Origin: an uncultured Alphaproteobacteria bacterium | GTDB taxonomy: Bacteria > Pseudomonadota > Alphaproteobacteria > Methylaequorales > Methylaequoraceae | NCBI GenBank assembly: GCA_902536655.1 | Contig: CACAYF010000001.1 | Location: 39,627-103,626, forward strand | Length of the DNA: 64,000 bases | Direction of reading: 5' to 3' | Part shown: one piece after another, positions 9,413-64,000 of the stretch | Numbering within the stretch: the first letter of the stretch is position 1 | Layout of the letters: each line of letters opens with the position of its first letter | The notes under the pieces: generated by a model | The model's database searches: none | Told to the model about the DNA's origin: nothing | Seen by the model: the letters and a program-made list of their open reading frames with translations, nothing else | Made by a program: the position numbers and the translations under genes

Positions 9413-11341
9413 ATGTGTGGAATTACCGGAATAGTGACATCTAAATTCAATCTAAATATAAATAGATTGAAATCTGAAATCCAGTGTATGACTAATCAAT
9501 TAAAAAATAGGGGACCAGATAACTTGGGTTTTTGGTGTTCTAATAATGATGGATTATTACTTGGGCATTCAAGGCTTTCAATTTTTGATACATCTAAGTT
9601 AGGTAATCAACCTATGATTTCAAGAAATAAAAGATATGTAATGTCATATAACGGAGAGATTTATAACTTTAAAAAAATAAAAAGTACTATTGAAAATAAA
9701 TTTAATTTCACTTTTAAAAGCACTAGTGATTCAGAGGTTCTGTTGGAGTCAATATCATTTTTTGGCTTAGAAAAGACTCTTGAAATAGTCGTTGGAATGT
9801 ATGCTTTCAGTTTATGGGATTCAAAAGAAAAAAAACTTTATTTGGTTGCTGACCCTTTAGCTAAAAAGCCTTTATATTGGGGTATATTTGATAATCATTT
9901 GATCTTTGGATCTGAAATCAAAGCAGTTGCCAAGTCAAAATTTTTTAAAAAAAAAATTAATAAAAATGCTCTATCTAATTATCTTAAATTTTCTTATATA
10001 AAACCTCCTTTAACTATTTTTGAAGATTTATTCAAAATTGAGCCTGGAACTTATTTATGTTTTAGTAAAGATTTAGGTTTTAAAAAAAAAAGATACTGGA
10101 ATCCTGTCGATTACATTTACAACGAGGGTTCTGATTTTAAATCATTTGATGATGTTAAACTTGAAGTAAAAGAAATATTAGAACTAGCGGTCAAGGAAAG
10201 GGCTCAAGCTGATGTTCCTCTCGGGGTAATGCTATCAGGTGGAATAGATAGTTCACTAATCACTGCTGTTGCACAAAAAATATCTGCTTCCAAAATTAAA
10301 ACTTTTTCTGTTGGTTTCAAGGATAAATTATTTGACGAATCTTCTTTTTCACAAAAGATTTCCCATAAACTCGACACAAATCATAAAACATTCTTTTTAG
10401 ATAAAGAATTAATAAATAATATTATTTATAAAATTCCTGAAATTTACGATGAACCTTTCGGTGATTCTTCTCAAATTCCCACATTTCTTATTTGTAAAGA
10501 AATAAAAAAAGAAGTAACGGTAGTTCTTTCAGGTGACGGAGGGGACGAAGTTTTTGGAGGTTATTCAAGATATATATGGGCAAATCACTTTTTTTCTTTT
10601 AAAAAAATCTTTGGGACTCAATTATCCAGCATCTTATCAAAATTAATAAATTATTTCCCTGACTATATTTATGATTTTTTATCAGGAATTTTACCTGTCA
10701 ATTCTAGGCCAGCAGATTTCGGGCACAGAATTAAAAAGATAGCAAAGATTCTTAATTCACAAAGTGAAGATGAGATTTATTATAAATTAATTTCGAATAG
10801 TCGACTTAATGGCTTACTGAAAAGAGATATATCGAAACATGGAAAAACACTATTTCATGAAAGAGTTAAGCATTATTCTTTAACTGAGAAAATGCAACTT
10901 CATGATCTGCAAAATTACTTAACTGGAGACATTCTTGTTAAGGTAGATAGAGCCAGTATGTCCAATTCAATGGAAGTTAGGTCTCCTTTCTTGGATAGAA
11001 GAATAATAGAATATACGCTAAAAAATCTTCGTGTTTCTCACAAAATTAATAAAAATAAGGGAAAACTTTTATCTCGAAGTATTTTAAATGATTATCTACC
11101 AAAAAAATATTTTGATAGACCAAAAATGGGATTCGCACTCCCAGTTGATGTACTATTAAAAAATCAGTTAAAAGAAACAATTAACAATTATTTTTCCAAA
11201 TCGTACATTGAAAATCAAAATATCTTCGACAAAAAAAAAATTGATTGTTTTATGGATGATTATTTCACAAAAGGTCACAGTTTAAAAAACGAAGTATGGA
11301 ATCTTTTTATATTTCAATTATGGTATGAAAAATGGATGTAA
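9413..11341 (+). CDS. asnB: Asparagine synthetase (glutamine-hydrolysing), AsnB/WbpS-like
   Basis: N-terminal MCGITGIV (Ntn Cys2), LSGGIDSS PP-loop, 642 aa. Confidence 0.75.
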   Translation: MCGITGIVTSKFNLNINRLKSEIQCMTNQLKNRGPDNLGFWCSNNDGLLLGHSRLSIFDTSKLGNQPMISRNKRYVMSYNGEIYNFKKIKSTIENKFNFTFKSTSDSEVLLESISFFGLEKTLEIVVGMYAFSLWDSKEKKLYLVADPLAKKPLYWGIFDNHLIFGSEIKAVAKSKFFKKKINKNALSNYLKFSYIKPPLTIFEDLFKIEPGTYLCFSKDLGFKKKRYWNPVDYIYNEGSDFKSFDDVKLEVKEILELAVKERAQADVPLGVMLSGGIDSSLITAVAQKISASKIKTFSVGFKDKLFDESSFSQKISHKLDTNHKTFFLDKELINNIIYKIPEIYDEPFGDSSQIPTFLICKEIKKEVTVVLSGDGGDEVFGGYSRYIWANHFFSFKKIFGTQLSSILSKLINYFPDYIYDFLSGILPVNSRPADFGHRIKKIAKILNSQSEDEIYYKLISNSRLNGLLKRDISKHGKTLFHERVKHYSLTEKMQLHDLQNYLTGDILVKVDRASMSNSMEVRSPFLDRRIIEYTLKNLRVSHKINKNKGKLLSRSILNDYLPKKYFDRPKMGFALPVDVLLKNQLKETINNYFSKSYIENQNIFDKKKIDCFMDDYFTKGHSLKNEVWNLFIFQLWYEKWM

Positions 11342-36531: not shown

Positions 36532-36804
36532 ATGCATAGCACGAAGAACATTATTGAATTCCCAAATTTAATAAACCAAAAGAAAGAAAAAATGGTTGAA
36601 ATTAGAGATGAAATTGAAAAGATTTTAACAAACTACGCCATTAATGAGCAAGATTTATGGGCTGTTTCACTTGCTGCTGGAAGATTTGCTTCAATCCATC
36701 TTGAAAAGTTGGATGGTGAAAAGCAGACGATTAATTTTTTCAAAAATTGCATTGAAACGCAAAGAAAGTTTGAACTAACTAGAAATTCTTCCAACATTAC
36801 CTGA
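36532..36804 (+). CDS. hypothetical protein (90 aa)
   Basis: ORF only. Confidence 0.2.
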   Translation: MHSTKNIIEFPNLINQKKEKMVEIRDEIEKILTNYAINEQDLWAVSLAAGRFASIHLEKLDGEKQTINFFKNCIETQRKFELTRNSSNIT

Positions 36805-37092
36805 AATTTGAGCTCCAGTATCAACGGAAAGTGAATTTGTTTTTAATTTACCGTCAATTACACCACTGTTAGATACCTCTAAAAGGTCAGCTGTAATATC
36901 TCCATCAACTTTTCCCTCTACTTTTATGTGTTCTGCATTAATGTTTCCATTGAATAGTGCTGTGGGTTCAATAACCACTGATCTCGCAACAATATTACCT
37001 TTAAAATTTCCTGCTATAACAACTTGGCCTTCTTTCGACTCCAATTGTCCTTCCATAAGAAGATTTTTGTTAATGTAAGTTATATCACTCAT
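36775..37092 (-). CDS. Bactofilin (DUF583) paralog 3
   Basis: Beta-helical repeats VIAGNFKGNIVARSVVIEP...GKVDGDITAD...VIDGKLKT. Confidence 0.65.
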   Translation of the reverse strand: MSDITYINKNLLMEGQLESKEGQVVIAGNFKGNIVARSVVIEPTALFNGNINAEHIKVEGKVDGDITADLLEVSNSGVIDGKLKTNSLSVDTGAQISGNVGRISS

Positions 37093-37446
37093 TTAATCCT
37101 CAGCATGCTTATTATTTTTTAACTTATTTTCATCCCAGTTATGGATGATTTTACAGTTAAGTGCTGCACCTCTATCCATCTGAAGTGATTTGTAATTAAT
37201 TTCTCCAGTAATCACAGAAGAATCTGTTAGCCAAACAGAATCAGCTTTAATTTTACCTTGATAGTTTCCAGAAATTACAACTAATTCAGATATTATTGAC
37301 CCCTCAAGTGAAGCATATTTGCCAAGTGTTACCTTATCGGATTTAATATCTGCTTCTACTCTTCCATTAATTTCTATAGTTGATGCATTAGATATTTTAC
37401 CTTTAAATATCGCTCCTCTTCCTATGATTGATTGATTATCTGCCAT
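37093..37446 (-). CDS. Bactofilin paralog 2
   Basis: IIGRGAIFKGKISNASTIEINGRVEADIKSDKVTL... bactofilin repeats. Confidence 0.65.
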   Translation of the reverse strand: MADNQSIIGRGAIFKGKISNASTIEINGRVEADIKSDKVTLGKYASLEGSIISELVVISGNYQGKIKADSVWLTDSSVITGEINYKSLQMDRGAALNCKIIHNWDENKLKNNKHAED

Positions 37447-37448
37447 TA

Positions 37449-37871
37449 TTAAACACCTTTAGGTTTTTTTGATTGTTTCTTTCTTTTTTCTTTCTCTAAA
37501 CTTTTATCTTCGATTCTTTTATCTAACCCTCGGAAAAGCTGGACCTCTAAATTAGCACCGGGTCTTGCACTTAAACTGTTGTAATACATATTACCTTTTA
37601 TGTTTGCTGCAGATTCTATAGCCAATGATTCAGCAGTAACATCCCCCTCAAATTTACCTCCAATTATACATTCGAAAGCTTTTATATTACCTTTCTGATT
37701 TCCTTCAGCAGAAATATGAACATGTTCGCATTCTATATTACCTTTAACAATTCCTTTAAGCACTAACTTTCCACTGCATTTTATATTACCATTAATTTGC
37801 ATTTCGGTACCAATTACACTAGAGGAAGTCGATGCTTTTTTTTGAGTTTTATCTGGATTTCTAGAAAACAT
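37449..37871 (-). CDS. Bactofilin paralog 1 (Lys-rich C-terminal tail)
   Basis: VIGTEMQINGNIKCSGKLVLKGIVKGNIECEHVHI... bactofilin repeats. Confidence 0.65.
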   Translation of the reverse strand: MFSRNPDKTQKKASTSSSVIGTEMQINGNIKCSGKLVLKGIVKGNIECEHVHISAEGNQKGNIKAFECIIGGKFEGDVTAESLAIESAANIKGNMYYNSLSARPGANLEVQLFRGLDKRIEDKSLEKEKRKKQSKKPKGV

Positions 37872-37882
37872 ATTTCTACATT

Positions 37883-37899
37883 TGCAATAATTTTGCCAA
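37883..37899 (-). promoter_or_regulatory. Candidate sigma-54-like promoter upstream of the bactofilin triad
   Basis: Minus strand TGGCAAA-ATTA-TTGC. Very close to the annotated bactofilin start, so it fits better if translation begins at the internal Met (MQINGNIK, ~37802). Confidence 0.3.
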
Positions 37900-38574: not shown

Positions 38575-39954
38575 ATGGAAAATTTATCTAAAAAAATTTC
38601 CATGAATGTTTTCAAATTTAACATTTTGAAAAATCTAAAATCAAGTACAAGATTCGGCGAAACAAGTATTTTTTCCAGAAATTTAAGTGTATTTTCAAAA
38701 AATCTTAGACTTCTTCTCAAAGAAAGAAGATTTCTTTATTTTACAAAAAAAGGGCCTATAGAAGTTGTATTCAATATTAAACACTATTTGTCAGCTATCA
38801 CAATTTTTCTGGTTTTAATCTTCAAAGTTTTTCAACTTTTATTCTTTGGTGTTTCGTCTTTTTTTTCTTATATGGTTTACAAAAATACAGTTATAAATGA
38901 ACAGAGTTTTACAGAATCTGAAATAAAAACATTAAAAAGTATTGCAAAAGGTAAAAATATTTCAGAGCAAGAAATTAATTCTGAAAAAGCAGAAATAGTA
39001 ATTAAACAACAAGATGAATTTACAAAAACGAATAATTTTCAAAATGAATTACAAGATCAATTAAGAGAAAAATTATTAAATTTAAAAAGTATGATGCGAA
39101 ATATAAAGCTTAGCTTCCCAAATGACTTGAATTATTCAGATGAAATTAAATTTGAACAATTTTCAAAACTTGCAAGTCCTGAAATGGTTGCAATAGAACA
39201 TGCCTTTGAGAACAAGTTTGATCTAACAAAACCATCAAAAGACAAAAAAGAATCATTTGCATATAGGAAGCTCCCTGTTGTACCGTTTGTTGCTCCAAGA
39301 ACAAAAAAACTTAAAATAATTAATTTTACAAAGAAAATTGATACCGAAATTTTACAACTTTTAAGTGTTTTTGAACAATTGAAACTTCAACCAGACAAAC
39401 TTGATATTATCAGGATAAACGCCTTGCTTGCTGAAAATATAAATGTAGGCGAAGATAATGAGGATTTATTGGATCATACTTCGCTGAGGTTTCAAATTTT
39501 GCAAGATCTAAAAGATGCAATTATTTATGTACCTTTAAAACCACCTATGCAATATTACTACGTGTCTAGTCCTTATGGAATCAGAGTTCATCCTAAAAGC
39601 AAAAGAAAACAAATGCATCATGGAATTGATATGGCTGGCACTTGGCAAGAAGAGGTTAGGGCACCTGCTGATGGATATGTTTCTTTTTCGGGAAGAAATG
39701 GGTCTTTTGGTAAAACTATTAAAATAGTTCATAAACATGGTGTGTCAACATTGTATGGACATCTTCATCGATTAAATGTGAAAAAAGGGATGAATGTCAC
39801 AGAGGGAGAAGTAATTGGAAAAATGGGATCAACAGGAAGAGCTGTTGGTGCGCATCTTCATTATGAAATAAAAGTTAGTGGTAAATCAGTAAATCCATAC
39901 GATTTCATTTCAGTGGGACGTGATCTGCTAAGCAGTTCAATAATTAAAAAATAA
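38575..39954 (+). CDS. M23 (LytM) family peptidoglycan endopeptidase, membrane anchored
   Basis: HHGIDMA...YGHLHR...GSTGRAVGAHLHYEI (HxxxD / HxH M23 motifs); N-terminal TM. Confidence 0.7.
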   Translation: MENLSKKISMNVFKFNILKNLKSSTRFGETSIFSRNLSVFSKNLRLLLKERRFLYFTKKGPIEVVFNIKHYLSAITIFLVLIFKVFQLLFFGVSSFFSYMVYKNTVINEQSFTESEIKTLKSIAKGKNISEQEINSEKAEIVIKQQDEFTKTNNFQNELQDQLREKLLNLKSMMRNIKLSFPNDLNYSDEIKFEQFSKLASPEMVAIEHAFENKFDLTKPSKDKKESFAYRKLPVVPFVAPRTKKLKIINFTKKIDTEILQLLSVFEQLKLQPDKLDIIRINALLAENINVGEDNEDLLDHTSLRFQILQDLKDAIIYVPLKPPMQYYYVSSPYGIRVHPKSKRKQMHHGIDMAGTWQEEVRAPADGYVSFSGRNGSFGKTIKIVHKHGVSTLYGHLHRLNVKKGMNVTEGEVIGKMGSTGRAVGAHLHYEIKVSGKSVNPYDFISVGRDLLSSSIIKK

Positions 39955-39990
39955 ATTAAAGTTTGGCACTTAAATTGCTGATTAAAATGC

Positions 39991-40611
39991 ATGAGATTAT
40001 TTTTAGCCGTTTTATTATGCTTTTTAATATTTACATTACTTGAATCAAAAGAACTTGAATCAAAAGAATTAGATAATTGTAACTATTTAACTGAAAAGTA
40101 CGGAAAAATTTATAATCTTCCCAATAAACTATTAACTTCTATTGCACTTGTTGAGTCAGGGATCAAAAAGAACGAATTTAAGTCATGGCCATGGACACTA
40201 AATGTTTCCGGAAAATCAATGTATTTTGATAATAAATTAGAAACCTTAGAATATTTAAAAAGTAATATAAGCTCTAAAAAAAGTATCGACGTCGGTTGCA
40301 TGCAAATTAACACAAGATACCACTTAAAAAATTTTAAAGATTTGTCTCATTTAGTCGAGCCTGAAGAAAACGTGAAGTACGCTGCAATTTATCTTCGTAA
40401 ACTTTTTAAAAAATATAAATCGTGGAACGAAGCAGTTTCAAGATATCATTCATCAATTCCAAAACGAAAGAAAAATTATCTTAAAAAAGTTCGTACATAT
40501 TGGAATGATTTAAGACAACAGAAAATAGTTATAGATAATAATTATATCAGCCATGATGAGGCAGAAAAAATAAAATTTTTTAGAGAAATACTAAAAAAAG
40601 AAAATACTTAA
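39991..40611 (+). CDS. Lytic transglycosylase, SLT-domain (secreted)
   Basis: Signal peptide; IALVESG...DVGCMQIN SLT catalytic Glu and motif II. Confidence 0.5.
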   Translation: MRLFLAVLLCFLIFTLLESKELESKELDNCNYLTEKYGKIYNLPNKLLTSIALVESGIKKNEFKSWPWTLNVSGKSMYFDNKLETLEYLKSNISSKKSIDVGCMQINTRYHLKNFKDLSHLVEPEENVKYAAIYLRKLFKKYKSWNEAVSRYHSSIPKRKKNYLKKVRTYWNDLRQQKIVIDNNYISHDEAEKIKFFREILKKENT

Positions 40612-40615
40612 GATT

Positions 40616-40828
40616 TTGGCAAAGTATTTGCACACATATTTTATGAAGGAGAAAAAAATGAATAAATATATATGTTCACGCGATATTAAAGATAATATTA
40701 TTAATTCTAACCCAGTTATTAAAATTACTCATTTTGAAAATGATAAAAGTGTTAAAACTGATGTTTACCCAATTTCACATTTCTTGGATAAATCTTCTAG
40801 AGAAATTAAAACGATAGTATATTCCTAA
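40616..40828 (+). CDS. hypothetical protein (70 aa)
   Basis: ORF only. Confidence 0.2.
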   Translation: MAKYLHTYFMKEKKMNKYICSRDIKDNIINSNPVIKITHFENDKSVKTDVYPISHFLDKSSREIKTIVYS

Positions 40829-40933: not shown

Positions 40934-42394
40934 CTACATATTCATACTTTGAATTTTCATAATTTTTCTTCTAACTGAGGAGGCTGGTATATTTAGTAAC
41001 TCCCTGTATTTTGCTACAGTTCTTCTAGCTAAATCAATTCCTTCATCTTGAAGTTTCTCTACTAACATTTCGTCACTCAATGGACTGTTAACTGGTTCAC
41101 TACTAATCAATTTTTTTAGAGATTCTCTCACTGATTCTGCTGAATGAGTTTCACCTTTCTTAGTACTACTTATGGAGGCACTAAAAAATAGTTTCATTTC
41201 AAAAACACCCCTTGGTGTTAGCATTAATTTATCTGATGTAACTCTACTGACTGTGCTTTCATGCATATTTATTTTTTTTGCTACATCTTTAAGAACCATT
41301 GGTTTAAGATATTTTTTTCCCTTTTCAAAAAATTCCTTTTGTTGGTTAACAATTTCTGAACTAATTTTAAGCGTTGTTACATTTCTCTGTTGAATTGCTT
41401 TAAGTAACCATCTTGCAGAATTTAAAGATTCATTAATAAACTTTTTATCTGATTCTCCACAATTAAGTCTTCCTATTTCTTTCACGTAGTCTTCATTAAT
41501 ATTAATTTTTGGAAGTGTGCTATTATTTAATTCCACCGCCCAATCAGAATTATTTTTTGTTACAATTACATCTGGATGAAAAATATTGTCATTATCCATC
41601 GAATATTTGCTACCAGGTTTTGGGTTTAGAGATCTTATAAGCCTAATTTCTTCTTTGAGTTTTTCTTCTTTTAATCCTGTAAGTTTTTGAAGACCTTTAA
41701 TATTTCCACTTCCAAGTAAATCAATATTATCAATAAGAATCTCTTTTTTTGAATCAAAGTTGTTTTCGTTTATTAGTTGAATTTTTAGGCACTCTTTCAA
41801 ATTTCTAGCAAACACCCCATTAGGCTCAAAAAATTGCATTCGTTCTAGAACTTTTTCAATTTTGTTTAATTTAAATCCACTAAACTCTTCAATAGTTTCC
41901 AATTTTTCTGTGATCCAACCATTTTCGTCAATATAGTCAATTAATATTGTTGCAATATTCTTATCTTCATCATCCTTGAATTCAAGATCCGCTTGATTAT
42001 TCAAAATGGACTTTAAAGAAATTTTGTTGCTAAGTGTTTGTTCTATTACACTTCCAACGTCAACACTTTCTTTTGACGTATGCTTTCTATTAAATTCAAA
42101 AGTTGCATCGTTATCCCACCTATTTTCAAAATCATCGTTACGAGGTTCATCTGCAATTGATTCACCATTTTTGAAAGATTCGTCTAATTCATCAGTTTTT
42201 TCCATGTTTTGATTGTCTTGATTCTCTAGTACTTCGCTCTCATTTTCCAAAAATGGATTCTCTTCTATCTCTTTGTTCACTAGATTTGTTAATTCTAAAT
42301 TATTTAACTGAAGCAATTTAATTGCTTGTTGTAACTGAGGAGTCATAACTAAAGATTGACTCTGTTTTAATTTAAGATTCTGTGAAATTTGCAT
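40934..42394 (-). CDS. rpoN: RNA polymerase sigma-54 factor
   Basis: N-terminal LKQSQSLVMTPQLQQAIKLLQLNNLEL; C-terminal RpoN box ARRTVAKYRE. Confidence 0.85.
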   Translation of the reverse strand: MQISQNLKLKQSQSLVMTPQLQQAIKLLQLNNLELTNLVNKEIEENPFLENESEVLENQDNQNMEKTDELDESFKNGESIADEPRNDDFENRWDNDATFEFNRKHTSKESVDVGSVIEQTLSNKISLKSILNNQADLEFKDDEDKNIATILIDYIDENGWITEKLETIEEFSGFKLNKIEKVLERMQFFEPNGVFARNLKECLKIQLINENNFDSKKEILIDNIDLLGSGNIKGLQKLTGLKEEKLKEEIRLIRSLNPKPGSKYSMDNDNIFHPDVIVTKNNSDWAVELNNSTLPKININEDYVKEIGRLNCGESDKKFINESLNSARWLLKAIQQRNVTTLKISSEIVNQQKEFFEKGKKYLKPMVLKDVAKKINMHESTVSRVTSDKLMLTPRGVFEMKLFFSASISSTKKGETHSAESVRESLKKLISSEPVNSPLSDEMLVEKLQDEGIDLARRTVAKYRELLNIPASSVRRKIMKIQSMNM

Positions 42395-52711: not shown

Positions 52712-52744
52712 TTTCCCCTCTTGATTAGTTTATACAAGAGAGAT

Positions 52745-52759
52745 GCAAAAACCTTGCCG
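52745..52759 (-). promoter_or_regulatory. Candidate internal sigma-54 promoter in the 127-bp fliN-fliO gap
   Basis: Minus strand CGGCAAG-GTTT-TTGC, ~22 nt upstream of the fliO start. Confidence 0.35.
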
Positions 52760-52838
52760 AAACAATAGTATTCGCTTTAAGTAACTGATTTAATTGATGA
52801 ATTATTGATTGAAAAAGAAGATGTCAATTTGCTGACAA

Positions 52839-54901: not shown

Positions 54902-56212
54902 TTAGGCATTCACATCAATATTATGATTACTAATTTTTTGATTTTTATTTTCAACATTTTTTTTATTCTTTTTAGAAATCTCATTGCTCGACAATAAATT
55001 TTCTCTTTCATTTTTTTGGTTAAAATAATTACTGTTGTTGTTTTCATTATTCATATTGCTTGAGAAACTTTTACTTTCTTTATCAATTGATTCTAAAAGT
55101 TTTGGAAGGTTGTCATTAAGAAGACTTACAACATCTTGATTCTCTGAACCAATGTTAACGGTTGTTACACTATTTTTTACAGAAACCTCCAAGTTTAATT
55201 TTCCTAAATTTTTGGGTTTAACCTGAATTTCTAATTTGTTTACACCATTATTAACTGCATTTTTAACAATTCTTGAGAATTTTTCGCCCCAGCTACTCTC
55301 TAATAAATCTAAAAAGATTTGTCCTTTATTGTGCATCTGATTGTCTTTAGTTTCCGGAGTTTTTGAAAAATCTTTATTGCTGATTTCTCTTTTTTGACCT
55401 ATTTGATTTTCTCTTGTTTTCTTCACAATTTGAGAAAAATTAGTATTATTTCTATTCTCCATTTTGACTTGTTTTGCAAGAAGGTCGTTTTGTTCGATTT
55501 CATCTTTTGCTGAAACTTTAAATTGTTTATTTTTTTTGTTTATTTTCTTGTTAATAATCGCAGTTTCAAAATTTGAATTCTTGGCTTTGTAATTAAATTC
55601 ATTTTGCTGCTTCAATACTTTACTATCAATTTGACTTTTATTTTCTGTAAAATATTTTGGATCGTGTTCATTTTTCTTAATTTTTTTTGAAGATGTAGGA
55701 TCTTTAATTATATTTATAACAATTTTTTTTGAATTATCATTTTTAAACGCTAAATCAGAATCATTAGAATCCAATTTATTCTCAACAGCTATTTTTTTTC
55801 CCCCTGTTATAAAATTTTTATTTAATAATGATTTTGGATTTTGATTTAAACTGTTTGGATTAGCATTTTTTGTTTGGTCCAAAGGTTCGACTATACCAAT
55901 TTCTTTATAAAATACCTCTATTAGTGATTTTGCAGTCTCATATTCAGAATCTGTGACCACTAATTTATTTTTCTGCTCGGAAGTTACTTTTAACAAACTA
56001 TTTTCAGAGATATTTTTACTTACATTCAAAAATTCTTCGGTATCAGTTTTTTGTAAGACTACATCTTTCAGCAAATTTTTATTTTCAGGATCTAGACTAT
56101 TTGTATTTATTAGTGCAAAGAGTTCAGCAAATAGCTCATTTGTTTTTTCAGAATGTAAAGTTGAGTTTACGAAATTTATGTTTTTGCTAGTATCATTTTT
56201 AATTGCAACCAT
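54902..56212 (-). CDS. fliK: Flagellar hook-length control protein FliK-like
   Basis: Low-complexity N/K-rich body; C-terminal Flg_hook-like region LEIQVKPKNLGKLNLEVSVKNSVTTVNIGSEN...; position between fliJ and fliL. Confidence 0.5.
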   Translation of the reverse strand: MVAIKNDTSKNINFVNSTLHSEKTNELFAELFALINTNSLDPENKNLLKDVVLQKTDTEEFLNVSKNISENSLLKVTSEQKNKLVVTDSEYETAKSLIEVFYKEIGIVEPLDQTKNANPNSLNQNPKSLLNKNFITGGKKIAVENKLDSNDSDLAFKNDNSKKIVINIIKDPTSSKKIKKNEHDPKYFTENKSQIDSKVLKQQNEFNYKAKNSNFETAIINKKINKKNKQFKVSAKDEIEQNDLLAKQVKMENRNNTNFSQIVKKTRENQIGQKREISNKDFSKTPETKDNQMHNKGQIFLDLLESSWGEKFSRIVKNAVNNGVNKLEIQVKPKNLGKLNLEVSVKNSVTTVNIGSENQDVVSLLNDNLPKLLESIDKESKSFSSNMNNENNNSNYFNQKNERENLLSSNEISKKNKKNVENKNQKISNHNIDVNA

Positions 56213-56255
56213 ATCTGCCCCTTGTTAAAGCAAATGTGCAATTATAATGCCACTA

Positions 56256-56669
56256 TTAAAGAGAAACTGAATTTTTAGGTTTGAAATAATTTTCTTTTTT
56301 TAATTCTTTTACTTTATCTTCTTGAATTTTAATAAATTTCTTTTTTTCACTTATTTTTTCTTTTTGTTTTTCAATTTTTACTATTTCTTTGAGATTATTA
56401 GTAATTTCGTCTAACACATGATTTTCTCTATTTTTTGAAACCTCAAGTTTATTTATTAAATTGCTAGTAAAAGATGCTTTGAATTTTAAATCTGAACCTG
56501 AAAGTTCACCAGATTCCTCTACGGCGCTTTGATTTAACATTTCATTCAACGTTTCTTTTACAAAATCTAACCTTTTTTTTTCATCATTTAGTGTAGATAA
56601 ATTGTTAAGCAACTTATTTTTCTTTAATTTTTTAAGAGTTAAAAAAATATCATATTTATTTTTTCTCAT
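56256..56669 (-). CDS. fliJ: Flagellar export chaperone FliJ-like coiled-coil protein
   Basis: 137 aa coiled coil immediately downstream of fliI. Confidence 0.5.
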   Translation of the reverse strand: MRKNKYDIFLTLKKLKKNKLLNNLSTLNDEKKRLDFVKETLNEMLNQSAVEESGELSGSDLKFKASFTSNLINKLEVSKNRENHVLDEITNNLKEIVKIEKQKEKISEKKKFIKIQEDKVKELKKENYFKPKNSVSL

Positions 56670-56673
56670 GTCA

Positions 56674-57993
56674 TCAGTTAATCTTCTTCAAGCTTGTTAT
56701 GCTATCTTCAAAACTTGATTTCATTTTAAAATGCTGTTTTATATGACTGCAAATTTTATTCCAATTATTTAATGCACTATCAATTTCAGGGTTTTGCCCT
56801 TGGGTATATCCCCCCATAAGAATGAGATCTTTGTTTTCTTGGTATATGGAGTATAATTTTTTTACTAATTCAGACTGATTTTGATGTTCTTCGGTAACAA
56901 TAGAATTCATTACTCTACTTAATGATTGATTTAAATCAATTGCAGGAAAAATTCCAAGTTGTGCAAGCTCTCTAGATAATACAATATGTCCATCTAATAT
57001 TGCTCTGGCAGTGTCTACTACAGGATCGTTCGTATCATCAGAATCTGCCAGTATTGTATAGAAACTTGTTATAGTTCCTTCATTTTTTGAACCGGCTCCA
57101 GTTCTTTCGATTAGATTTGGAATCATTGAAATTACAGATGTTGGGTATCCTTTTGAAGTAGGTTGTTCACCGAGTGCCAACCCTACCTCTCGTTTCGCAT
57201 GAGCTATTCTGGTAAGAGAGTCCATAATAAGCAAAACGTTTTTTCCTTTAGACCTAAAATGTTCTGCAATTGAAGTTGCTCTTTCTGCTCCTTTAATTCT
57301 TAATAATGGCGATTTGTCAGCTGGCACGGCTACGGTGACAGTTCTTTTTCTTGATTCGTCATTTAATATTTCTGATACAAAATTGCCTAACTCTCTTCCT
57401 CTTTCTCCGATCAGTGCTACAACAACAACATCAGCGTCAGTAAACTTAGTCATCATTCCGAGTAAAATAGATTTTCCAACTCCAGAACCTGCAATAATTC
57501 CAAGCCTTTGACCTCTTCCCACAGTAAAAAGTGAATTGATCGCTCTAATACCAACATCTAGCACTTCATTTATTGGTTTTTTTGACATTGGGTTATTAGG
57601 TTTTCCATTAATTGGCCATGTTTCTGCAGAGTCATTTATTTTTGCGCCTCCATCTATTGGATTCCCAAAAGCATCTAAAACCCTTCCAAGTAAATGAGAA
57701 CCCACAATTACGTCATTTGATGAATTTAAGACTCTTATTTCAGATCCTAAAATTATGTTTGCATTATTTTCATGAACGGCAATAATATTTTTATTTTCTT
57801 TGAAACCAATGATTTCTCCCGTGACTATAGATTTGTCATTACATTCTATTTCACATGTTGTACCGATGGGTGAGGGAAATGCTTCACATTCGACAACTTT
57901 ACCGTCATATTTTGATGTTTTACTCTTATAGATCCTGTTTTGAGATATAGTATGTGAATCTAAAGTCTGAAGTATTTTTTTTGCTATAACCAT
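56674..57993 (-). CDS. fliI: Flagellum-specific ATP synthase FliI
   Basis: Walker A GQRLGIIAGSGVGKS; F1/T3SS ATPase family. Confidence 0.85.
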   Translation of the reverse strand: MVIAKKILQTLDSHTISQNRIYKSKTSKYDGKVVECEAFPSPIGTTCEIECNDKSIVTGEIIGFKENKNIIAVHENNANIILGSEIRVLNSSNDVIVGSHLLGRVLDAFGNPIDGGAKINDSAETWPINGKPNNPMSKKPINEVLDVGIRAINSLFTVGRGQRLGIIAGSGVGKSILLGMMTKFTDADVVVVALIGERGRELGNFVSEILNDESRKRTVTVAVPADKSPLLRIKGAERATSIAEHFRSKGKNVLLIMDSLTRIAHAKREVGLALGEQPTSKGYPTSVISMIPNLIERTGAGSKNEGTITSFYTILADSDDTNDPVVDTARAILDGHIVLSRELAQLGIFPAIDLNQSLSRVMNSIVTEEHQNQSELVKKLYSIYQENKDLILMGGYTQGQNPEIDSALNNWNKICSHIKQHFKMKSSFEDSITSLKKIN

Positions 57994-58017
57994 TTATGTT
58001 TAATTCTAAATAAAAGT

Positions 58018-58884
58018 TTATTTTTGAGAATTTAATTTGGTATCTTCAAGATCTTTCTCAATTTCATCAGGTATTGAAAATTTAATTTTTTTAGAAACAA
58101 TGTCACTCATCTCTATTGATCCTGATTTTATTCTCATATCGCCTCGTTCAAGTTTTGCGTCTTGATTGATTTCAAATGACAAACTTAAATTATTTTTGCT
58201 GTTGTAAGCTTTTATAGATTCAAAATCTTTTGGATTTAAAAAAACTACAATATTTTCAATTGAGTTTTCAACTGAATTAACAACTTGCTTAATTTTTTCT
58301 TGAAATAATTTATTGTTATTATCTATCTCGTAACCTAAAACTTCTTTTGATAAATTTGAAAGTAAATTCGTTATTGATTTGTTTAATTCATTAACAAATT
58401 CTGGCGTCATTTTAAAAATATTATCAGTTGTATTTTTAAGTGTCACAGCAAGCGATTTTTCTCCTTTTTGAAGCTCTTCTGTAGTTTTTTTTACTCCAAG
58501 TTTATAACCATTGTTGTAATATTGTTTTGCTAAGTCATTGGCTAATTTTTGTGCTTCTACTTCTGTATATATTTTTTCATTTTCTGGTTTTTTTTCATCG
58601 ATAACATCACTTGTTTGTTGCTTTTCGTTACTTTCAGAAACTTCATTTAAATCTTTTGTTACTTCTTCTTTTTTTTCAGATGTTATTTCTTGATTTTTTT
58701 GTGCAAGGGATAATGGAGTAATTTTTTTAAACAAATTAGTAATGTTAGAAGTGATATCTGACTCTTTTACGAAGTCTTTATTACTTTTATTTAATAAACT
58801 AACAATTTCTTCAGTGCTAAGTGCTCCAGAAATTTTTTCATCACTTTTTTGCTGAGTTTCAGTTTTGTCTGTGAGTGGCATCAT
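58018..58884 (-). CDS. fliH: Flagellar assembly protein FliH
   Basis: Position between fliG and fliI; E/K-rich N-terminus plus FliH-like C-terminus. Confidence 0.55.
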   Translation of the reverse strand: MMPLTDKTETQQKSDEKISGALSTEEIVSLLNKSNKDFVKESDITSNITNLFKKITPLSLAQKNQEITSEKKEEVTKDLNEVSESNEKQQTSDVIDEKKPENEKIYTEVEAQKLANDLAKQYYNNGYKLGVKKTTEELQKGEKSLAVTLKNTTDNIFKMTPEFVNELNKSITNLLSNLSKEVLGYEIDNNNKLFQEKIKQVVNSVENSIENIVVFLNPKDFESIKAYNSKNNLSLSFEINQDAKLERGDMRIKSGSIEMSDIVSKKIKFSIPDEIEKDLEDTKLNSQK

Positions 58885-59930
58885 ACGAAGTCATCTCCAC
58901 CTCTTCCAGCAAGCACAATTGTTCCTTCGTCTGACATAGTTCTTGCTACATTTATGATAGCCTTCTGAGCCTCTTGAACTTCTGTAAGTCTCAGTGGGCC
59001 AAGTACTTCCATTTCATCTCTGATGTTTGCCGAAGCTCTTTGAGACATGCACGAGAAAATCTTATCTTTTAATTCGTCTTCTGTTCCTTTAAGCGCAATT
59101 ATAAGAATTTCTTGATCAACATTTCTTAATAAAGTTTGCATGCTTCTATCATCCATTAAAATTAACGTGTCAAAGGTAAACATACTTTCCTGAATTTCTT
59201 TAGCTAAATTTCTATCTTTTTCACCTAATGTTTTCATGATTCTTTGTTCCATATTTTGCTTTGTAAAATTCATTATTGATGCAGCATCTTTTATTCCACC
59301 GACTGAGGAGGCTCGCAATGAAGTGTTTGTTTTAAATTTAAGTTGCATAACCCTTTCTAATTCCGCCAAAGCGTCTGGTTGAACTGTTTCTAGAGTTGCA
59401 ATGCGATGAATAATATCAGATTGAGTTTCTTCGGGTAGCAAAGTTAAAACATCTGCTGCAACACCGGGCTCTAAATACGAAATTATCAATGCCATTATTT
59501 GAGGATGTTCATCAGAAATTAATTCTGCAACTGATCTGGCATCCATCCAATCTAAAATTTCTATTGGTTTGTCACTTTCAGTAGGGGTAATTCTTCCAAG
59601 AACAGACTGAGCTTTATTTTCGCCTAAGGCTTTTGTCATTACATTTCTTATGTAGTTTGTAGAACCCATTCCCAAGTCAGTTTGTGTTTTTATGATGGCT
59701 AAAAATTCGTCTAAAACTCTATTTACAGTTTCTTGATCTAAACCTTGAACATTGTACATCTCTTTACCGAGTTGCTGCACTTCTTTTGGACCCAAATTTT
59801 TTAAAATTTCTGAAGCCTCTTCCTCGCCTAAAAGCATCATCAAAATAGCACATTTTTGAGTGCTTGTTAATTGTTCATATTGCGACTTTTCTTCTTCTTC
59901 TTTATTTTCTTCCTTAGCTTTTTCAGCCAT
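58881..59930 (-). CDS. fliG: Flagellar motor switch protein FliG
   Basis: FliG N, M and C domains; CAILMMLLGEEEASEILKNL; C-terminal torque helix. Confidence 0.85.
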   Translation of the reverse strand: MAEKAKEENKEEEEKSQYEQLTSTQKCAILMMLLGEEEASEILKNLGPKEVQQLGKEMYNVQGLDQETVNRVLDEFLAIIKTQTDLGMGSTNYIRNVMTKALGENKAQSVLGRITPTESDKPIEILDWMDARSVAELISDEHPQIMALIISYLEPGVAADVLTLLPEETQSDIIHRIATLETVQPDALAELERVMQLKFKTNTSLRASSVGGIKDAASIMNFTKQNMEQRIMKTLGEKDRNLAKEIQESMFTFDTLILMDDRSMQTLLRNVDQEILIIALKGTEDELKDKIFSCMSQRASANIRDEMEVLGPLRLTEVQEAQKAIINVARTMSDEGTIVLAGRGGDDFV

Positions 59931-59954
59931 TTGAGTACTCCTTATTAATTTATA

Positions 59955-61679
59955 TTATATATCTTTTTTCATAAGTTGTCTGAATACATTTGAAACTTTT
60001 CCAGCTTCATCTCCCACTATCATCCTGATAACAGCAACTTTATCGTCGTAAGTATTGGCCGTATCGAGCATATCTGCTGAAATAGTTGATTTTTTTGGTT
60101 TAAGTTTAGCTTTTATGTCTTCGAGAGATTCGCCTTCTTGAACTTGAACTTCATCTTCTGCTTCTTCTGCCTCAAGATCAGCCTCAGAAGTACCACCTGG
60201 ACCTGCAGCTGTTCCAGCTGAAGGAACTAAAATTCTATTTAACAATGGCTTTAATGCACCGAATGTTACGATTGCAAGAATTAGAACAGTAGATAACTGA
60301 CCAACCATATTTTGAAACCATGATTGTTCATACCATTTAGTTGTAATAACATCCATTTCTTGGATAAAATCTCCGCTGGTTACAACAATTGTGTCTTCTC
60401 TATCCTCATTGAAACCAACCGCTTCTTTAACAAGAGAAGTAATTTTTTCTCTATCTTCTTCACTTATAGGCTCAGAGACGACTGTGCCTTCCGGAGTTTC
60501 AATCATTTTATTTTTAACTAAAACAGCCGTCTTAACTTTTTTAATTTTTCCAATTTGACCAACAGTTGTGCTAAGTTTTTTGCTAACTTCGTAGTTTTTA
60601 ACATTACTGGATGATCTTTGCTTGAATTCTGCTGGTTCCCCAGTTTCAGGAGCTGCAACTTGTAAATCAGCAGCTAAAGGAGCCTGGTTAGCAACTGCAC
60701 CTGGAACTCCTCGTGCAGGTCTGTCTGTAGATTCATCTTGACTGTTTTGCTCACTTCTTGTTGAAATACTCTCAGGATCGAAAATTTCCTCTGTGGTTTG
60801 ATTGCTTGTAAAATCCATTTCAACATTTACTTGGGCTGTTAAATTACCTGCACCAACGATTGGAGAAACTAATGATAAAATTCTTTCTCTGTATATAGAT
60901 TCAATTTTCACTCTGTGTGCTAATTGTTTCTCTGTCATTGCTAAATTGGGATCATCTTCTGGTTTTGACAATAACGAACCATATTGATCTACAACTGTTA
61001 CATTATCGGAAGTCATGTTAGGAATTGATGATGACACTATATGAACAATTGATCTAATTTGCTCTAAACCTAAAGCTCTTCCATCAGCTAGTTTAACAAA
61101 TACAGATGCAGTGGGAGGAGAGGAGTCCCTGACAAAAACAGATTTTTCAGGAATTGCTAGATGTACCCTTGCTCCAATAATGTTAGCTATTTCATTTATC
61201 GATCTGGCAAGCTCTATTTCTTGAGTCTGTTTCATTTTCATAAATTCAACTGACCTACTTGTGCCCATTGGAATTTTTTCAAGTATATCATAACCTTGAG
61301 GAACAGAGCTTGGCAAACCTTCTGCAGCAAGCTTCATTTTTGCTTCATAATATTCTGGAGATGGTACTAAAATTTCACCTGTTGTTCTGTCGATTGAAAC
61401 ATCAATTCCATTAGATCTTAAAACATCAATTACTCTGGATTTCTCATGTTCAGGTAATGTTGCAAATAAGGTTGTTCTTGGGGGTTCTCTGAAAGATATA
61501 AAAAAAACTAAACCAAGAAAAATAACAAATAAAGTTATCATAACTGGGATAGATCTTTGGACAGCAGGTTCATTAGAAAATTTTTTAATTTTTTCTAAAG
61601 AATTGCTAATATTTGATAGCATTCCTTGATTTGACGCTAAATTTTTTGTTACTTCAGTAGTTTGAATTTCTTCAGCCAT
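59955..61679 (-). CDS. fliF: Flagellar MS-ring protein FliF
   Basis: YscJ/FliF N-terminal domain LFATLPEHEKSRVIDVLRSNGIDV; C-terminal TM; 574 aa. Confidence 0.85.
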   Translation of the reverse strand: MAEEIQTTEVTKNLASNQGMLSNISNSLEKIKKFSNEPAVQRSIPVMITLFVIFLGLVFFISFREPPRTTLFATLPEHEKSRVIDVLRSNGIDVSIDRTTGEILVPSPEYYEAKMKLAAEGLPSSVPQGYDILEKIPMGTSRSVEFMKMKQTQEIELARSINEIANIIGARVHLAIPEKSVFVRDSSPPTASVFVKLADGRALGLEQIRSIVHIVSSSIPNMTSDNVTVVDQYGSLLSKPEDDPNLAMTEKQLAHRVKIESIYRERILSLVSPIVGAGNLTAQVNVEMDFTSNQTTEEIFDPESISTRSEQNSQDESTDRPARGVPGAVANQAPLAADLQVAAPETGEPAEFKQRSSSNVKNYEVSKKLSTTVGQIGKIKKVKTAVLVKNKMIETPEGTVVSEPISEEDREKITSLVKEAVGFNEDREDTIVVTSGDFIQEMDVITTKWYEQSWFQNMVGQLSTVLILAIVTFGALKPLLNRILVPSAGTAAGPGGTSEADLEAEEAEDEVQVQEGESLEDIKAKLKPKKSTISADMLDTANTYDDKVAVIRMIVGDEAGKVSNVFRQLMKKDI

Positions 61680-61696
61680 AATTATTTCCTTTTAAT

Positions 61697-62035
61697 TTAA
61701 ACAGGCATGTTCATAATGTCTTTATATGCGCTCAAGACTTTATTTCTTACGTTTAAAGTCATTTGAAAACCTAAACTAGACAATTGTTGTTGAATCATAA
61801 CTTTAGTCAAATCGTTCTCTATACCAAGCTCAAAGTTTTTCGTCAATTCAGCGCTTTGTTTCTGGGTATCAGAAACCTCTTGAATCGCTGACTTAATATT
61901 ATCCAAAAAACCACCATCTTGTGGTTCCATTATTTTTGGAGACAGATTTGCAACCTCTTCTTGAACTTTCTTTATTTCATTTTGGTTGTTTGGTGTGGTA
62001 ACTGTTGGTTTTAAATTAGTAAGATTTGGTTTCAT
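61697..62035 (-). CDS. fliE: Flagellar hook-basal body protein FliE
   Basis: C-terminal VRNKVLSAYKDIMNMPV FliE signature. Confidence 0.8.
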   Translation of the reverse strand: MKPNLTNLKPTVTTPNNQNEIKKVQEEVANLSPKIMEPQDGGFLDNIKSAIQEVSDTQKQSAELTKNFELGIENDLTKVMIQQQLSSLGFQMTLNVRNKVLSAYKDIMNMPV

Positions 62036-62051
62036 GATTTCTCCTTCAAAA

Positions 62052-63209
62052 TTAAGCTTGCATCAATTTTTTTTCTGATAAATTTTCTTGAATATTATTA
62101 TAAAAATTACTTTGTTTTGATACATCTATCATTATATCTTTAGCCTCAATAATATTTTTTTCACAAAGAACTATGGCTCGCTGTAGGACATTTTCTAACT
62201 CTCTAACATTTCCAGGCCAACCATACTCTTTTAATATTTTTTGAGCATCTTTATTGATGTAAGGCAAGGAGCTATTTTCTGTGTGTCTATTCAACAGAGC
62301 AATACTTATTGGTAAAATATCATCAGGTCTTTCAGATAAATTATGTGTTTCTATTGGGAATACATTTAGTCTGTAATATAAATCCTCTCTGAATTTTTTT
62401 TCTCTTACTTCGTCTAACATATCTCTGTTCGTAGTTGCAATTACTCTTACATTGACATCAATATCCCTTTGTCCGCCAATCGGTGTAACTTTTTTTTCTT
62501 GGAGAACTCTCAGAAGTTTGGCTTGGAGGGACAACGGCATTTCAGATACTTCATCAAGGAGTAATGTGCCATTATCCGCAGCTCGAAAAATTCCTTTATT
62601 GGCAGAAGAAGCTCCTGTAAAAGCTCCTTTTTCATGTCCAAATAACATTGCTTCAAGCATATTTTCTGGTATTGCAGCACAATTTATCGCAATAAAAGGT
62701 TTTTCATGTCTATCCGACTTTTTATGAATTAGGTTGGAAATAACTTCTTTTCCAGTTCCGGTCGGTCCATGAATGAATACTGTAACATCAGTTTTTGAAA
62801 CTTTTTCAACCATGTTAATTAAAGAAAGTGTTTTCTTATCAGAGAAACTGTACTTTTCCTTAGATATAATTTGGAAAATGATTTCTTTTATAACTTCATC
62901 CATAATTTTGTAAGAAATTTGAATATAAGCTCCGCCCATTTCTTTTTTTAAATCATAATTACCATCACTTGTTGAATCCAAAACTATTAATTTTGTGGAA
63001 CCTATATTTCTAGCTATTTTAAGGATATTTGATTGACCACCTTGTTTGTTTTCGAATTTTTTATCAATAATCAGTGTGGATTGAGAGCTCTTAATTTCAC
63101 TTATTTCATCGGAAACAATTAACTTTATTTCCTTTCTTTTTTTACTAAAAAAATCACTTACTTCATTGTATACTTCAAAACAATCTTTAATAATAAATAT
63201 TTCCTTCAT
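62052..63209 (-). CDS. Sigma-54-dependent activator (AAA+ with GAFTGA), degenerate receiver-like N-terminus, no C-terminal HTH (FleT/FlbD/FlgR-like)
   Basis: Walker [30 protein letters not shown] and GNVRELEN, then ends ~45 aa later. The tracked TTG start at 63236 is probably superseded by the ATG at 63209 (MKEIFIIKD), preceded by AAGGA. Confidence 0.7.
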   Translation of the reverse strand: MKEIFIIKDCFEVYNEVSDFFSKKRKEIKLIVSDEISEIKSSQSTLIIDKKFENKQGGQSNILKIARNIGSTKLIVLDSTSDGNYDLKKEMGGAYIQISYKIMDEVIKEIIFQIISKEKYSFSDKKTLSLINMVEKVSKTDVTVFIHGPTGTGKEVISNLIHKKSDRHEKPFIAINCAAIPENMLEAMLFGHEKGAFTGASSANKGIFRAADNGTLLLDEVSEMPLSLQAKLLRVLQEKKVTPIGGQRDIDVNVRVIATTNRDMLDEVREKKFREDLYYRLNVFPIETHNLSERPDDILPISIALLNRHTENSSLPYINKDAQKILKEYGWPGNVRELENVLQRAIVLCEKNIIEAKDIMIDVSKQSNFYNNIQENLSEKKLMQA

Positions 63210-63243
63210 ATTTAAATCCTTTATTTTCGTTTTCAATCTAAAA

Positions 63244-63259
63244 GCAAAAATATTGCCAA
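63244..63259 (-). promoter_or_regulatory. Candidate sigma-54 promoter for the activator-fliEFGHIJ... operon
   Basis: Minus strand reads TGGCAAT-ATTT-TTGC. The predicted TSS (~63233) sits just upstream of the ATG at 63209, supporting that start. Confidence 0.45.
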
Positions 63260-63318
63260 ATATGAAAATGAATTTTTACTTAATAGATTTTAGATAGTAA
63301 TATCAACCACTTAGAATC

Positions 63319-63341
63319 TTTTTTTTTTTTTTATTTTTTTT
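63319..63341. repeat. Poly-T tract (T14-A-T8) in the divergent regulatory region between the two sigma-54 activator genes
   Basis: Seen directly: ctttttttttttttt a tttttttt. Confidence 0.6.
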
Positions 63342-63400
63342 AAAATTTGCTTATTGTCAGTTTTCTGACATTATTTTATTTATAAATAAGTTAATTTATT

Positions 63401-64000
63401 ATGTCAGACATAATCAAAGGAAAATGCGAGGCAACTCAACAATTAAAAAAACTTGTAGAGATGGTTGCAAAATCAAACTCAACAGTTTTACTTAGAGGTG
63501 AGACTGGGTGTGGAAAAGATGTAGTTGCCAGAGCTATTCATAAATCATCTAAAAGAAATGGTGAATTAATTAATGTTAATTGTGCAGCGATTCCGTCCGA
63601 GCTTTTAGAATCTGAATTGTTTGGTCACGAAAAAGGAGCATTTACTGGTGCAGATTCAAAAAGAGAAGGAAGATTCGAGGCTTCCAATAATGGTACCTTG
63701 TTTCTAGATGAAATAGGTGACATGCCTATGGCACTTCAGGCTAAATTACTCAGAGCGATTGAAACTAGGAAAATTCAACGAGTTGGAGGAAGAAAAGAGA
63801 TTGACCTTAATTTGAGGCTTATTTGTGCAACTCACCAAGACATTGAAAAAAAAATTGATGAGGGTAACTTTAGAGCCGATCTATTTTTTCGAATTAATGT
63901 ATTTCCAATTGAAATTCCATCACTTGCAGAGAGAAAGGAGGATATTCCAATTCTTGTTAATCATATCTTAGAGGATTTGAAATGCAGTGGATCTATTATT
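63401..64000 (+). CDS. Sigma-54-dependent activator, 3'-partial; starts directly with the AAA+ domain (PspF/HrpR-like, no N-terminal regulatory domain)
   Basis: In-frame stop 9 nt upstream of the [14 protein letters not shown] Walker [25 protein letters not shown] Walker B. Confidence 0.7.

Follow-up and report, generated by a model that had tools for sequence, protein, structure and literature searches.

Which proteins switch on the flagellar genes of a small-genome marine bacterium, and in what order, is the question raised by two divergent sigma-54 activator genes, here called A and B, in a 64,000-nucleotide stretch of DNA from an uncultured alphaproteobacterium (contig CACAYF010000001.1, positions 39,627 to 103,626; hereafter the window). 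The window has a GC content of 28.9%, and its final 30 kb form a flagellar region. Gene A is the first gene of an A-fliEFGHIJ operon, with fliE starting 16 nt past the A stop codon, and B is transcribed away from it across a 191-bp spacer. Quite probably, A and B together are the master regulators of a flagellar regulon of the Rhodobacter fla1 type (gammaproteobacteria-like) and correspond to FleQ/FleT. The pair is largely ordinary, its members being counterparts of the already described FleQ and FleT of Rhodobacter (Cereibacter) sphaeroides, and it is less atypical than a first-pass annotation of the locus had proposed, the arrangement being already in the literature (PMC11999139, PMC7277832, PMC9542535). 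The elements on which the argument turns are as follows.

63401..64000, plus strand: gene B, its 5' 200 codons, cut at the window end; FleQ-type sigma-54 activator without an N-terminal domain (Pfam; FleQ match)
62052..63209, minus strand: gene A, FleT-type sigma-54 activator of 385 aa, with predicted pseudo-receiver, AAA+ domain and lid and no helix-turn-helix (HTH) (Pfam; WS8N P0274 similarity; FlrC match)
62349..62840, minus strand: sigma-54 interaction (AAA+) domain of A, with Walker A, Walker B and GAFTGA (PF00158; motifs from the translation)
62856..63209, minus strand: N-terminal domain of A, about residues 1-118, predicted pseudo-receiver (predicted fold)
63244..63258, minus strand: sigma-54 (-24/-12) promoter of the A-fliE operon, TGGCAATATTTTTGC (exact consensus; kept in 21/21 aligned loci)
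63355..63370, no strand: palindrome TGTCAG-N4-CTGACA, putative enhancer and B site (conserved over 21 loci)

The ATG of B lies at 63401, with an in-frame TAA (63392-63394) 9 nt upstream. In the part of B within the window, Sigma54_activat begins at residue 6 (E 1.6e-69), Walker A (GETGCGK) occupies residues 33-39 and GAFTGA residues 79-84, in agreement with the original description of a protein that starts directly at its AAA+ core. An exact look-up of FliE led to contig L001, which has 96.3% DNA identity to window positions 55710-64000, and a genome scan led to contigs L007-L009, which are about 95% identical to the window. Full-length B is 354 aa in each of these contigs, and 190-192 of its first 200 residues are as in the window (192 in L001). 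Beyond position 64000 these near-identical contigs encode AAA_lid_14 (residues 177-250) and a Fis-type HTH_8 (residues 306-346, E 2e-11). The claim that B consists only of the AAA+ core is thereby overturned: B comprises AAA+, lid and HTH_8, with no N-terminal regulatory domain. Because no such domain is present, B should be active whenever it is made. The next gene in L001 is an unrelated rhodanese/UPF0176-type gene, so B marks the end of the flagellar cluster.

A further metagenome contig, L002 (ERZ23499893), carries a divergent version of this gene. Its positions 544-1027, aligned with window positions 63515-64000, are 86.6% identical over the B region, against 95.6% for the rest of the contig. 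About 37 nt are absent where the Walker A region would be encoded, and the called gene is confined to a C-terminal fragment of 179 aa. Either B is disrupted in the strain concerned or the assembly is chimeric.

The mechanical open reading frame (ORF) of A spans 62052..63236 on the minus strand, with a TTG start and 394 aa, and the Pfam coordinates given here use this 394-aa numbering. The real start is the ATG at 63209 (385 aa), because the TTG extension overlaps the sigma-54 promoter at 63244-63258, because an AAAGG ribosome-binding site precedes the ATG in 21/21 aligned loci, and because all database gene calls are of 385 aa. Pfam scans, which covered 23 window ORFs beyond the first 34 kb, placed Sigma54_activat (PF00158) at residues 133-296 of A (E 3e-69) and AAA_lid_14 at residues 302-377. 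GAFTGA is encoded at 62610-62627, and the AAA+ domain is complete, as had been reported. Neither HTH_8 nor Response_reg was matched in A at E <= 0.1, and the 98% identical L001 copy gave neither at E <= 1. Only 47 residues follow GNVREL, a tail too short for a Fis-type HTH. The first-pass annotation had read the tail in this way while allowing for a cryptic HTH in the C-terminus, for which the domain scan returned no match. Because its HTH has been lost, A would be unable to bind DNA.

The N-terminal domain of A is harder to place. The Pfam scan gave no match to it, and a phmmer search with residues 1-130 against 1.8 billion representatives returned 33 matches, of which 31 were short same-family sequences and none was an identifiable canonical receiver protein. 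With hhalign, the profile of the domain aligned collinearly and weakly with FlrC receivers (probability 9%, E 0.0036), and the comparison with FleQ N-terminal domains was negative. The AlphaFold2 model of residues 1-128 alone was confident (mean predicted local distance difference test score, pLDDT, 85.7); it was used in place of the full-length model, which was poor in the AAA+ part (pLDDT 60.6). The domain is accordingly predicted to have a receiver fold, an assignment made by predicted fold only. The Asp at the end of strand 3 (D49) is kept in this lineage and its closest relatives only. In homologues 45-85% identical the position is H, S, N, C or A, and in Rhodobacteraceae it is S or A. 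In the alignments the acidic pair after strand 1 is not conserved, conservation of the Thr/Ser and Lys signature positions was not seen on inspection, and hardly any variation occurs at R67 and G92-G93. A has no kinase gene as a neighbor, and a crude motif scan found no HisKA-type ORF in the 64-kb window. Because the phospho-acceptor Asp and the acidic pair are variable and no kinase gene is adjacent, the domain is best described as a probable pseudo-receiver, which would most simply be a relic of the FlrC/FleR receiver. The degenerate, receiver-like N-terminus recognized at first reading is in keeping with these results. The broader proposal that neither partner has a conventional sensory input is also broadly supported, with B lacking an N-terminal domain in about 20 genomes. 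The same N-terminal domain is found in the annotated C. sphaeroides WS8N protein, although the alignment with A, which begins at residue 44, covers only part of it. This suggests, as a small new point, that FleT-type proteins keep a degenerate receiver domain absent from descriptions in the literature.

The pair is conserved well beyond the window. A genome scan with A as query found a nearest tier of homologues, 62-95% identical, in uncultured marine Alphaproteobacteria. These are single-cell genomes (AG- and AH- series) and metagenome-assembled genomes (MAGs) that bear the submitter labels Pelagibacteraceae or Rickettsiales, and the A family also occurs in the protein database on contigs of 1.3-1.5 Mb. 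The divergent A/B pair with the same truncations is present in about 20 related marine loci that hold both genes (L007-L027). In these loci A measures 381-388 aa; its Walker A falls at about residue 147, and GNVREL is followed by 44-48 residues. For B the length is about 354-360 aa, Walker A comes about 32 residues from the start, and the stretch beyond GNVREL has 131-137 residues. Three mechanical B ORFs are extended to 371-400 aa by start codons further upstream, and contig ends truncate two copies. The next tier of A homologues is in Rhodobacteraceae, at 43-53% identity over nearly the whole length. These proteins are of 376-430 aa and lack an HTH, the exception being a 579-aa mechanical ORF with a long, non-homologous upstream extension. 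A divergent B-type gene accompanies them in 3 of about 25 Rhodobacteraceae loci (L041, L048 and L051), where the pair shows the truncations seen in the marine loci.

Sequence comparisons place the two activators in separate families. The best solved-structure match of B is P. aeruginosa FleQ (8p53) residues 150-485 (E 2.2e-82, about 280 bits), HTH included, and the alignment begins exactly at the start of the FleQ AAA+ domain, FleQ residue 150. Among solved structures, A finds its best match in the V. cholerae FlrC AAA+ domain (E 3.6e-79). In gammaproteobacterial fleQ-(kinase)-fleR-fliE loci with two activators (among L055-L086), B is always the better-scoring partner of the first activator, and A that of the fliE-proximal one. 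A and B are 48% identical in the AAA+ core and are therefore not recent duplicates; neither reaches an NCBIfam equivalog cutoff. By these matches B belongs to the FleQ lineage, and A appears to descend from FlrC/FleR. Over residues 44-366, A shares 50% identity with P0274 of C. sphaeroides WS8N, a 378-aa protein without an HTH, and a C. johrii homologue of A (98% identical to P0274) is followed by fliE, fliF and fliG. Position and the absent HTH indicate that P0274 is probably the published FleT. Given the 50% identity and the same place before fliE, A is an orthologue of this FleT-locus protein. A 259-aa version of the C. johrii homologue, without the N-terminal domain, was rejected as a contig-end artefact, since its frame is open to the contig edge and the WS8N protein has 378 aa.

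Short activators in tandem also precede fliE in MAGs of Steroidobacteraceae and related Gammaproteobacteria (within L055-L086, e.g., L062, L072, L073 and L076). Their lengths are 354-411 aa (first) and 324-353 aa (second), and each combines a short N-terminus with a C-terminal tail of HTH length. The two genes are not separated by a kinase gene, and the FleQ-FleS/FleR module seems to have been reduced here a further time, independently.

The whole window was searched for the sigma-54 consensus TGGC-N7-TTGC and compared with 100 shuffles. Five sites were found against 0.77 expected, and 0/100 shuffles reached five. Each of the five shares the strand of a gene whose start it closely precedes, and four are in intergenic spacers; the fifth (40617-40631) is enclosed by the small ORF that it precedes when that ORF is taken at its full mechanical length. 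Besides the promoter of A, these sites and the sigma-54 gene of the cluster are:

56238..56252, minus strand: sigma-54 promoter before fliK, candidate A/B target (consensus)
39964..39978, plus strand: sigma-54 promoter before an SLT-domain (SltF-like) gene (consensus)
40617..40631, plus strand: sigma-54 promoter before a small ORF (consensus)
37884..37898, minus strand: sigma-54 promoter before three bactofilin genes (consensus)
40934..42394, minus strand: rpoN, encoding sigma-54, 486 aa (Pfam Sigma54_AID, Sigma54_CBD and Sigma54_DBD)

Weaker sigma-54 candidates precede motA (43881) and the fliO-position gene (52744). When the A-B spacer was aligned from 21 loci, two conserved blocks only were apparent, the sigma-54 promoter and the palindrome, the rest being diverged and AT-rich. 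The promoter block reads TTGG(C/T)AA-N4-T(T/C)TTGCTT across loci. The palindrome, which takes the form TGTCA-N6-TGACA in most loci, lies about 100 bp upstream of the A promoter, a distance typical for an enhancer, and 31 bp upstream of the B ATG. Palindromes of the form GTCA-N6-TGAC also occur 100-150 bp upstream of fleT-type sigma-54 promoters in L031, L037 and L048. We regard the palindrome as a putative enhancer and the predicted binding site of B. Together with the FleT-locus orthology of A, the FleQ lineage of B and the rpoN gene in the window, the conserved promoter and palindrome favor the FleQ/FleT-type two-activator arrangement suggested by the first-pass annotation.

Between the palindrome and the promoter, at 63325-63347, a run of about 14 T on the plus strand sits in a wider T/A-rich stretch, which is kept as an A/T-rich tract in all related loci. 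This tract may give intrinsic DNA bending in place of a site for integration host factor. The only other exact copy of TGTCA-N6-TGACA in the window is at 52822-52837. It precedes the sigma-54-like site CGGCAAGGTTTTTGCA (52744, minus strand) by about 80 bp, and the spacer between the fliN-position and fliO-position genes contains both. These elements (52744-52837) may form an internal B-dependent promoter for fliOPQR-flhB.

The system to which the pair is likened has been studied by experiment. R. sphaeroides FleQ with RpoN2 activates the fleT-fliEFGHIJ operon, and FleT, which has no DNA-binding domain and is inactive alone, forms hetero-oligomers with FleQ that activate class III promoters (PMC11999139, PMC7277832). 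The rpoN2 gene is within the fla1 cluster (PMC7277832). FleQ and FleT are both described as lacking N-terminal regulatory domains (PMC9542535), and for FleT both flanking domains are said to be missing (PMC3162934, PMC10084136). In its architecture B agrees with R. sphaeroides FleQ as described in PMC9542535.

Building on the domain architectures, orthology, pair conservation and conserved spacer elements observed here, the following order of events can be proposed. B would bind the palindrome in the shared intergenic region and, with the sigma-54 encoded in the cluster, open the promoter about 100 bp away, so that A-fliEFGHIJ is transcribed. A, which would have lost its HTH and its kinase partner and kept a degenerate, non-phosphorylatable receiver fold, would not bind DNA. 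By analogy with R. sphaeroides, A and B would instead assemble into mixed AAA+ rings, and these would redirect activation to later sigma-54 promoters, such as those of fliK, the sltF-like gene and others, in a predicted class switch. Control would thus come mainly from the order of expression, not from a sensory domain. Expression order, as in the published R. sphaeroides cascade, would suffice, and the need for a FleN- or PspA-like anti-activator, invoked by the first-pass annotation, is not supported; none was found in the window by partial scans, and a crude motif scan found no ParA/MinD-type ORF there.

Several points weigh against this reading. The A-B interaction on which it depends is predicted by analogy, and a fleN/flhG gene, kinases or a second rpoN might lie in the genome outside the 64-kb window. 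A itself might be phosphorylated by a kinase encoded elsewhere, as it carries an Asp at the phospho-acceptor position in this lineage. The palindrome is without significant window-wide enrichment (four matches with one mismatch allowed, against 2.2 expected) and does not occur ahead of the fliK, sltF-like or bactofilin promoters, although this absence fits the published idea that the mixed complex recognizes different sites. On the plus strand the palindrome also reads as a weak terminator-like hairpin followed by a T-run ahead of the B start codon. Because it is just upstream of that codon, it could autoregulate B; a role as B autoregulation site or as terminator-like hairpin is speculative.

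The alternatives concern what A does and what B is. A might act alone from solution as a kinase-phosphorylated activator devoid of a DNA-binding domain, in the manner of Helicobacter FlgR or Chlamydia CtcC, leaving B as upstream master regulator only. Such a role would suit the predicted receiver fold of A, the D49 of this lineage and its closest relatives, and descent from FlrC/FleR, which FlrB/FleS phosphorylate. We consider it unlikely, however, in view of the replacement of D49 in other homologues including those of Rhodobacteraceae, the lack of conservation at the acidic pair and of visible conservation at the Thr/Ser and Lys positions, and the failure of the crude scan to find a HisKA-type ORF in the window. 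In gammaproteobacterial loci the kinase gene is placed between the two activators. R. sphaeroides FleT alone is, moreover, inactive on flagellar promoters (PMC11999139). It is also conceivable that A is mainly a negative modulator which, lacking an HTH, poisons or titrates B hexamers as a feedback brake on the early promoter. As a full AAA+ subunit in all but the HTH, A could co-assemble with B, and its promoter would be activated by B, giving a feedback topology. Against this, Walker A, Walker B and GAFTGA are intact in A and would not be needed by a pure inhibitor, and class III activation in R. sphaeroides depends on FleT (PMC11999139, PMC7277832), which leaves the brake quite an unlikely main role. 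The roles of brake and co-activator are not mutually exclusive.

For B, the first-pass annotation drew a likeness to PspF, which raises the possibility of a PspF-type stress regulator, or of an unrelated bacterial enhancer-binding protein (bEBP), that merely neighbors the flagellar cluster. The pspF gene and its target operon are transcribed in opposite directions, and a site lies close to the pspF start. B shares this arrangement with respect to its putative target operon, and the likeness holds for domain architecture as well, both proteins being AAA+ plus HTH without an N-terminal domain. It does not extend to sequence: the solved-structure score of B is about 280 bits for FleQ against about 194 for PspF, and the NCBIfam PspF models give 260.7 bits against a cutoff of 443.55 (TIGR02974) and 228 bits against one of 529. 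Since, in addition, B-A-fliE synteny is kept across about 20 genomes and no PspA-family match was found among the 23 window ORFs scanned against Pfam, we regard a PspF-type or unrelated B as highly improbable. We conclude that the FleQ/FleT-type pair remains the preferred reading. An extension of it would see the FleT family as other than 'AAA+ only', the conserved cryptic pseudo-receiver of A making the pair a split enhancer-binding protein with its regulatory module on A and its DNA-binding module on B. A ligand or partner sensed by the pseudo-receiver would then gate mixed-ring assembly and the class II to class III switch. We put this forward tentatively, as a rather doubtful possibility.

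The surrounding genes are those of a flagellar cluster. From 63209 downwards the minus-strand order is gene A, fliE, fliF, fliG, fliH, fliI, the fliJ-position gene and fliK, and the flagellar region of the window also holds motA and motB.

61697..62035, minus strand: fliE (Pfam FliE)
59955-61679, minus strand: fliF (Pfam label on the same gene in L001)
58881-59930, minus strand: fliG (Pfam label on the same gene in L001)
58018-58884, minus strand: fliH (Pfam label on the same gene in L001)
56674-57993, minus strand: fliI (Pfam label on the same gene in L001)
56256-56669, minus strand: fliJ-position gene (position only; Pfam scan without a match)
54902-56212, minus strand: fliK (Pfam Flg_hook)
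flagellar region, minus strand: fliL-, fliM-, fliN-, fliO-, fliP-, fliQ- and fliR-position genes (assigned by position alone)
flagellar region, minus strand: flhB (Pfam Bac_export_2)

The three bactofilin genes (105, 117 and 140 aa; 36775-37871, minus strand; Pfam Bactofilin E 1e-21 to 1e-23) are in tandem directly behind the consensus promoter at 37884-37898, an arrangement that points to joint regulation of a bactofilin scaffold and the flagellum. The first ATG is only about 13 nt past the -12 element, and the true start of this gene may be further downstream. On the plus strand, the span 38575-40611 holds a Peptidase_M23 gene (459 aa) and then the SLT-domain lytic transglycosylase gene (206 aa, 39991-40611), which has its own sigma-54 promoter and resembles the flagellum-specific SltF of R. 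sphaeroides. The small ORF that follows (40616-40828, plus strand; about 56-70 aa, MNKYICSRDIK...) has a good ribosome-binding site and is convergent with rpoN. In window positions 1-34000, as judged from ORF N-termini only, the genes look like those of a sugar-modification or glycosyltransferase region and include a probable asparagine-synthase-like gene (9413-11341); this content may be linked to surface or flagellin glycosylation.

These findings leave current understanding of sigma-54 control unchanged. They extend the FleQ/FleT two-activator hierarchy, experimentally studied only in R. sphaeroides, to an abundant, streamlined, uncultured marine alphaproteobacterial lineage with genomes of about 1.3-1.5 Mb and 29% GC. 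With a single sigma-54 promoter and a single palindrome in 191 bp of spacer, the very compact and conserved regulatory region would lend itself to studies of how a minimal bEBP recognizes its enhancer.

Among known systems, Helicobacter and Campylobacter FlgR and Chlamydia CtcC share with A a receiver and AAA+ domain without a DNA-binding domain (PMC3162934). They have functional phospho-accepting receivers and cognate kinases and act alone from solution, whereas the predicted receiver of A is degenerate and a DNA-binding partner is encoded beside it. E. coli PspF resembles B in having AAA+ and HTH without an N-terminal domain, and in its divergence from the target operon with a binding site near its own start; B is not its orthologue, the target operon here is flagellar, and no pspA-like gene was seen among the scanned ORFs. 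HrpR and HrpS of P. syringae are likewise paired bEBPs without regulatory domains, thought to be hetero-hexameric (PMC10084136, PMC9542535). They are close paralogues in tandem under the anti-activator HrpV, while the partners here are of separate lineages (48% identical), B alone has a DNA-binding domain, and no HrpV-like factor was found.

The Pseudomonas FleQ-FleS/FleR and Vibrio FlrA-FlrB/FlrC systems are related by descent, with B a homologue of FleQ/FlrA and A of FleR/FlrC. They share the gene order activator...activator-fliEFGHIJ and the use of sigma-54 for early and middle flagellar genes. Here, in contrast, no kinase gene lies between the activators, and B is divergent instead of tandem. 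B lacks the approximately 140-aa N-terminal (receiver-like) domain of FleQ, an absence kept in related genomes, and A lacks the HTH and the conserved phospho-acceptor of FlrC/FleR. Compared with R. sphaeroides FleQ/FleT, the host is a small-genome, 29% GC uncultured marine alphaproteobacterium, and the pair is known from sequence alone where its R. sphaeroides counterpart is known by experiment. B is also directly divergent from A, as in only 3 of about 25 Rhodobacteraceae loci. Where the literature has FleT as 'AAA+ only', A and the annotated WS8N protein carry an N-terminal domain of about 120 aa, a predicted pseudo-receiver. The two systems nevertheless share two sigma-54 activators, one HTH-bearing without a regulatory domain (FleQ and B) and one HTH-less (FleT and A), the latter first in the fliEFGHIJ operon behind a sigma-54 promoter, with a dedicated rpoN in the cluster. 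The WS8N FleT-locus protein is itself 50% identical to A, with lengths of 378 and 385 aa, respectively.

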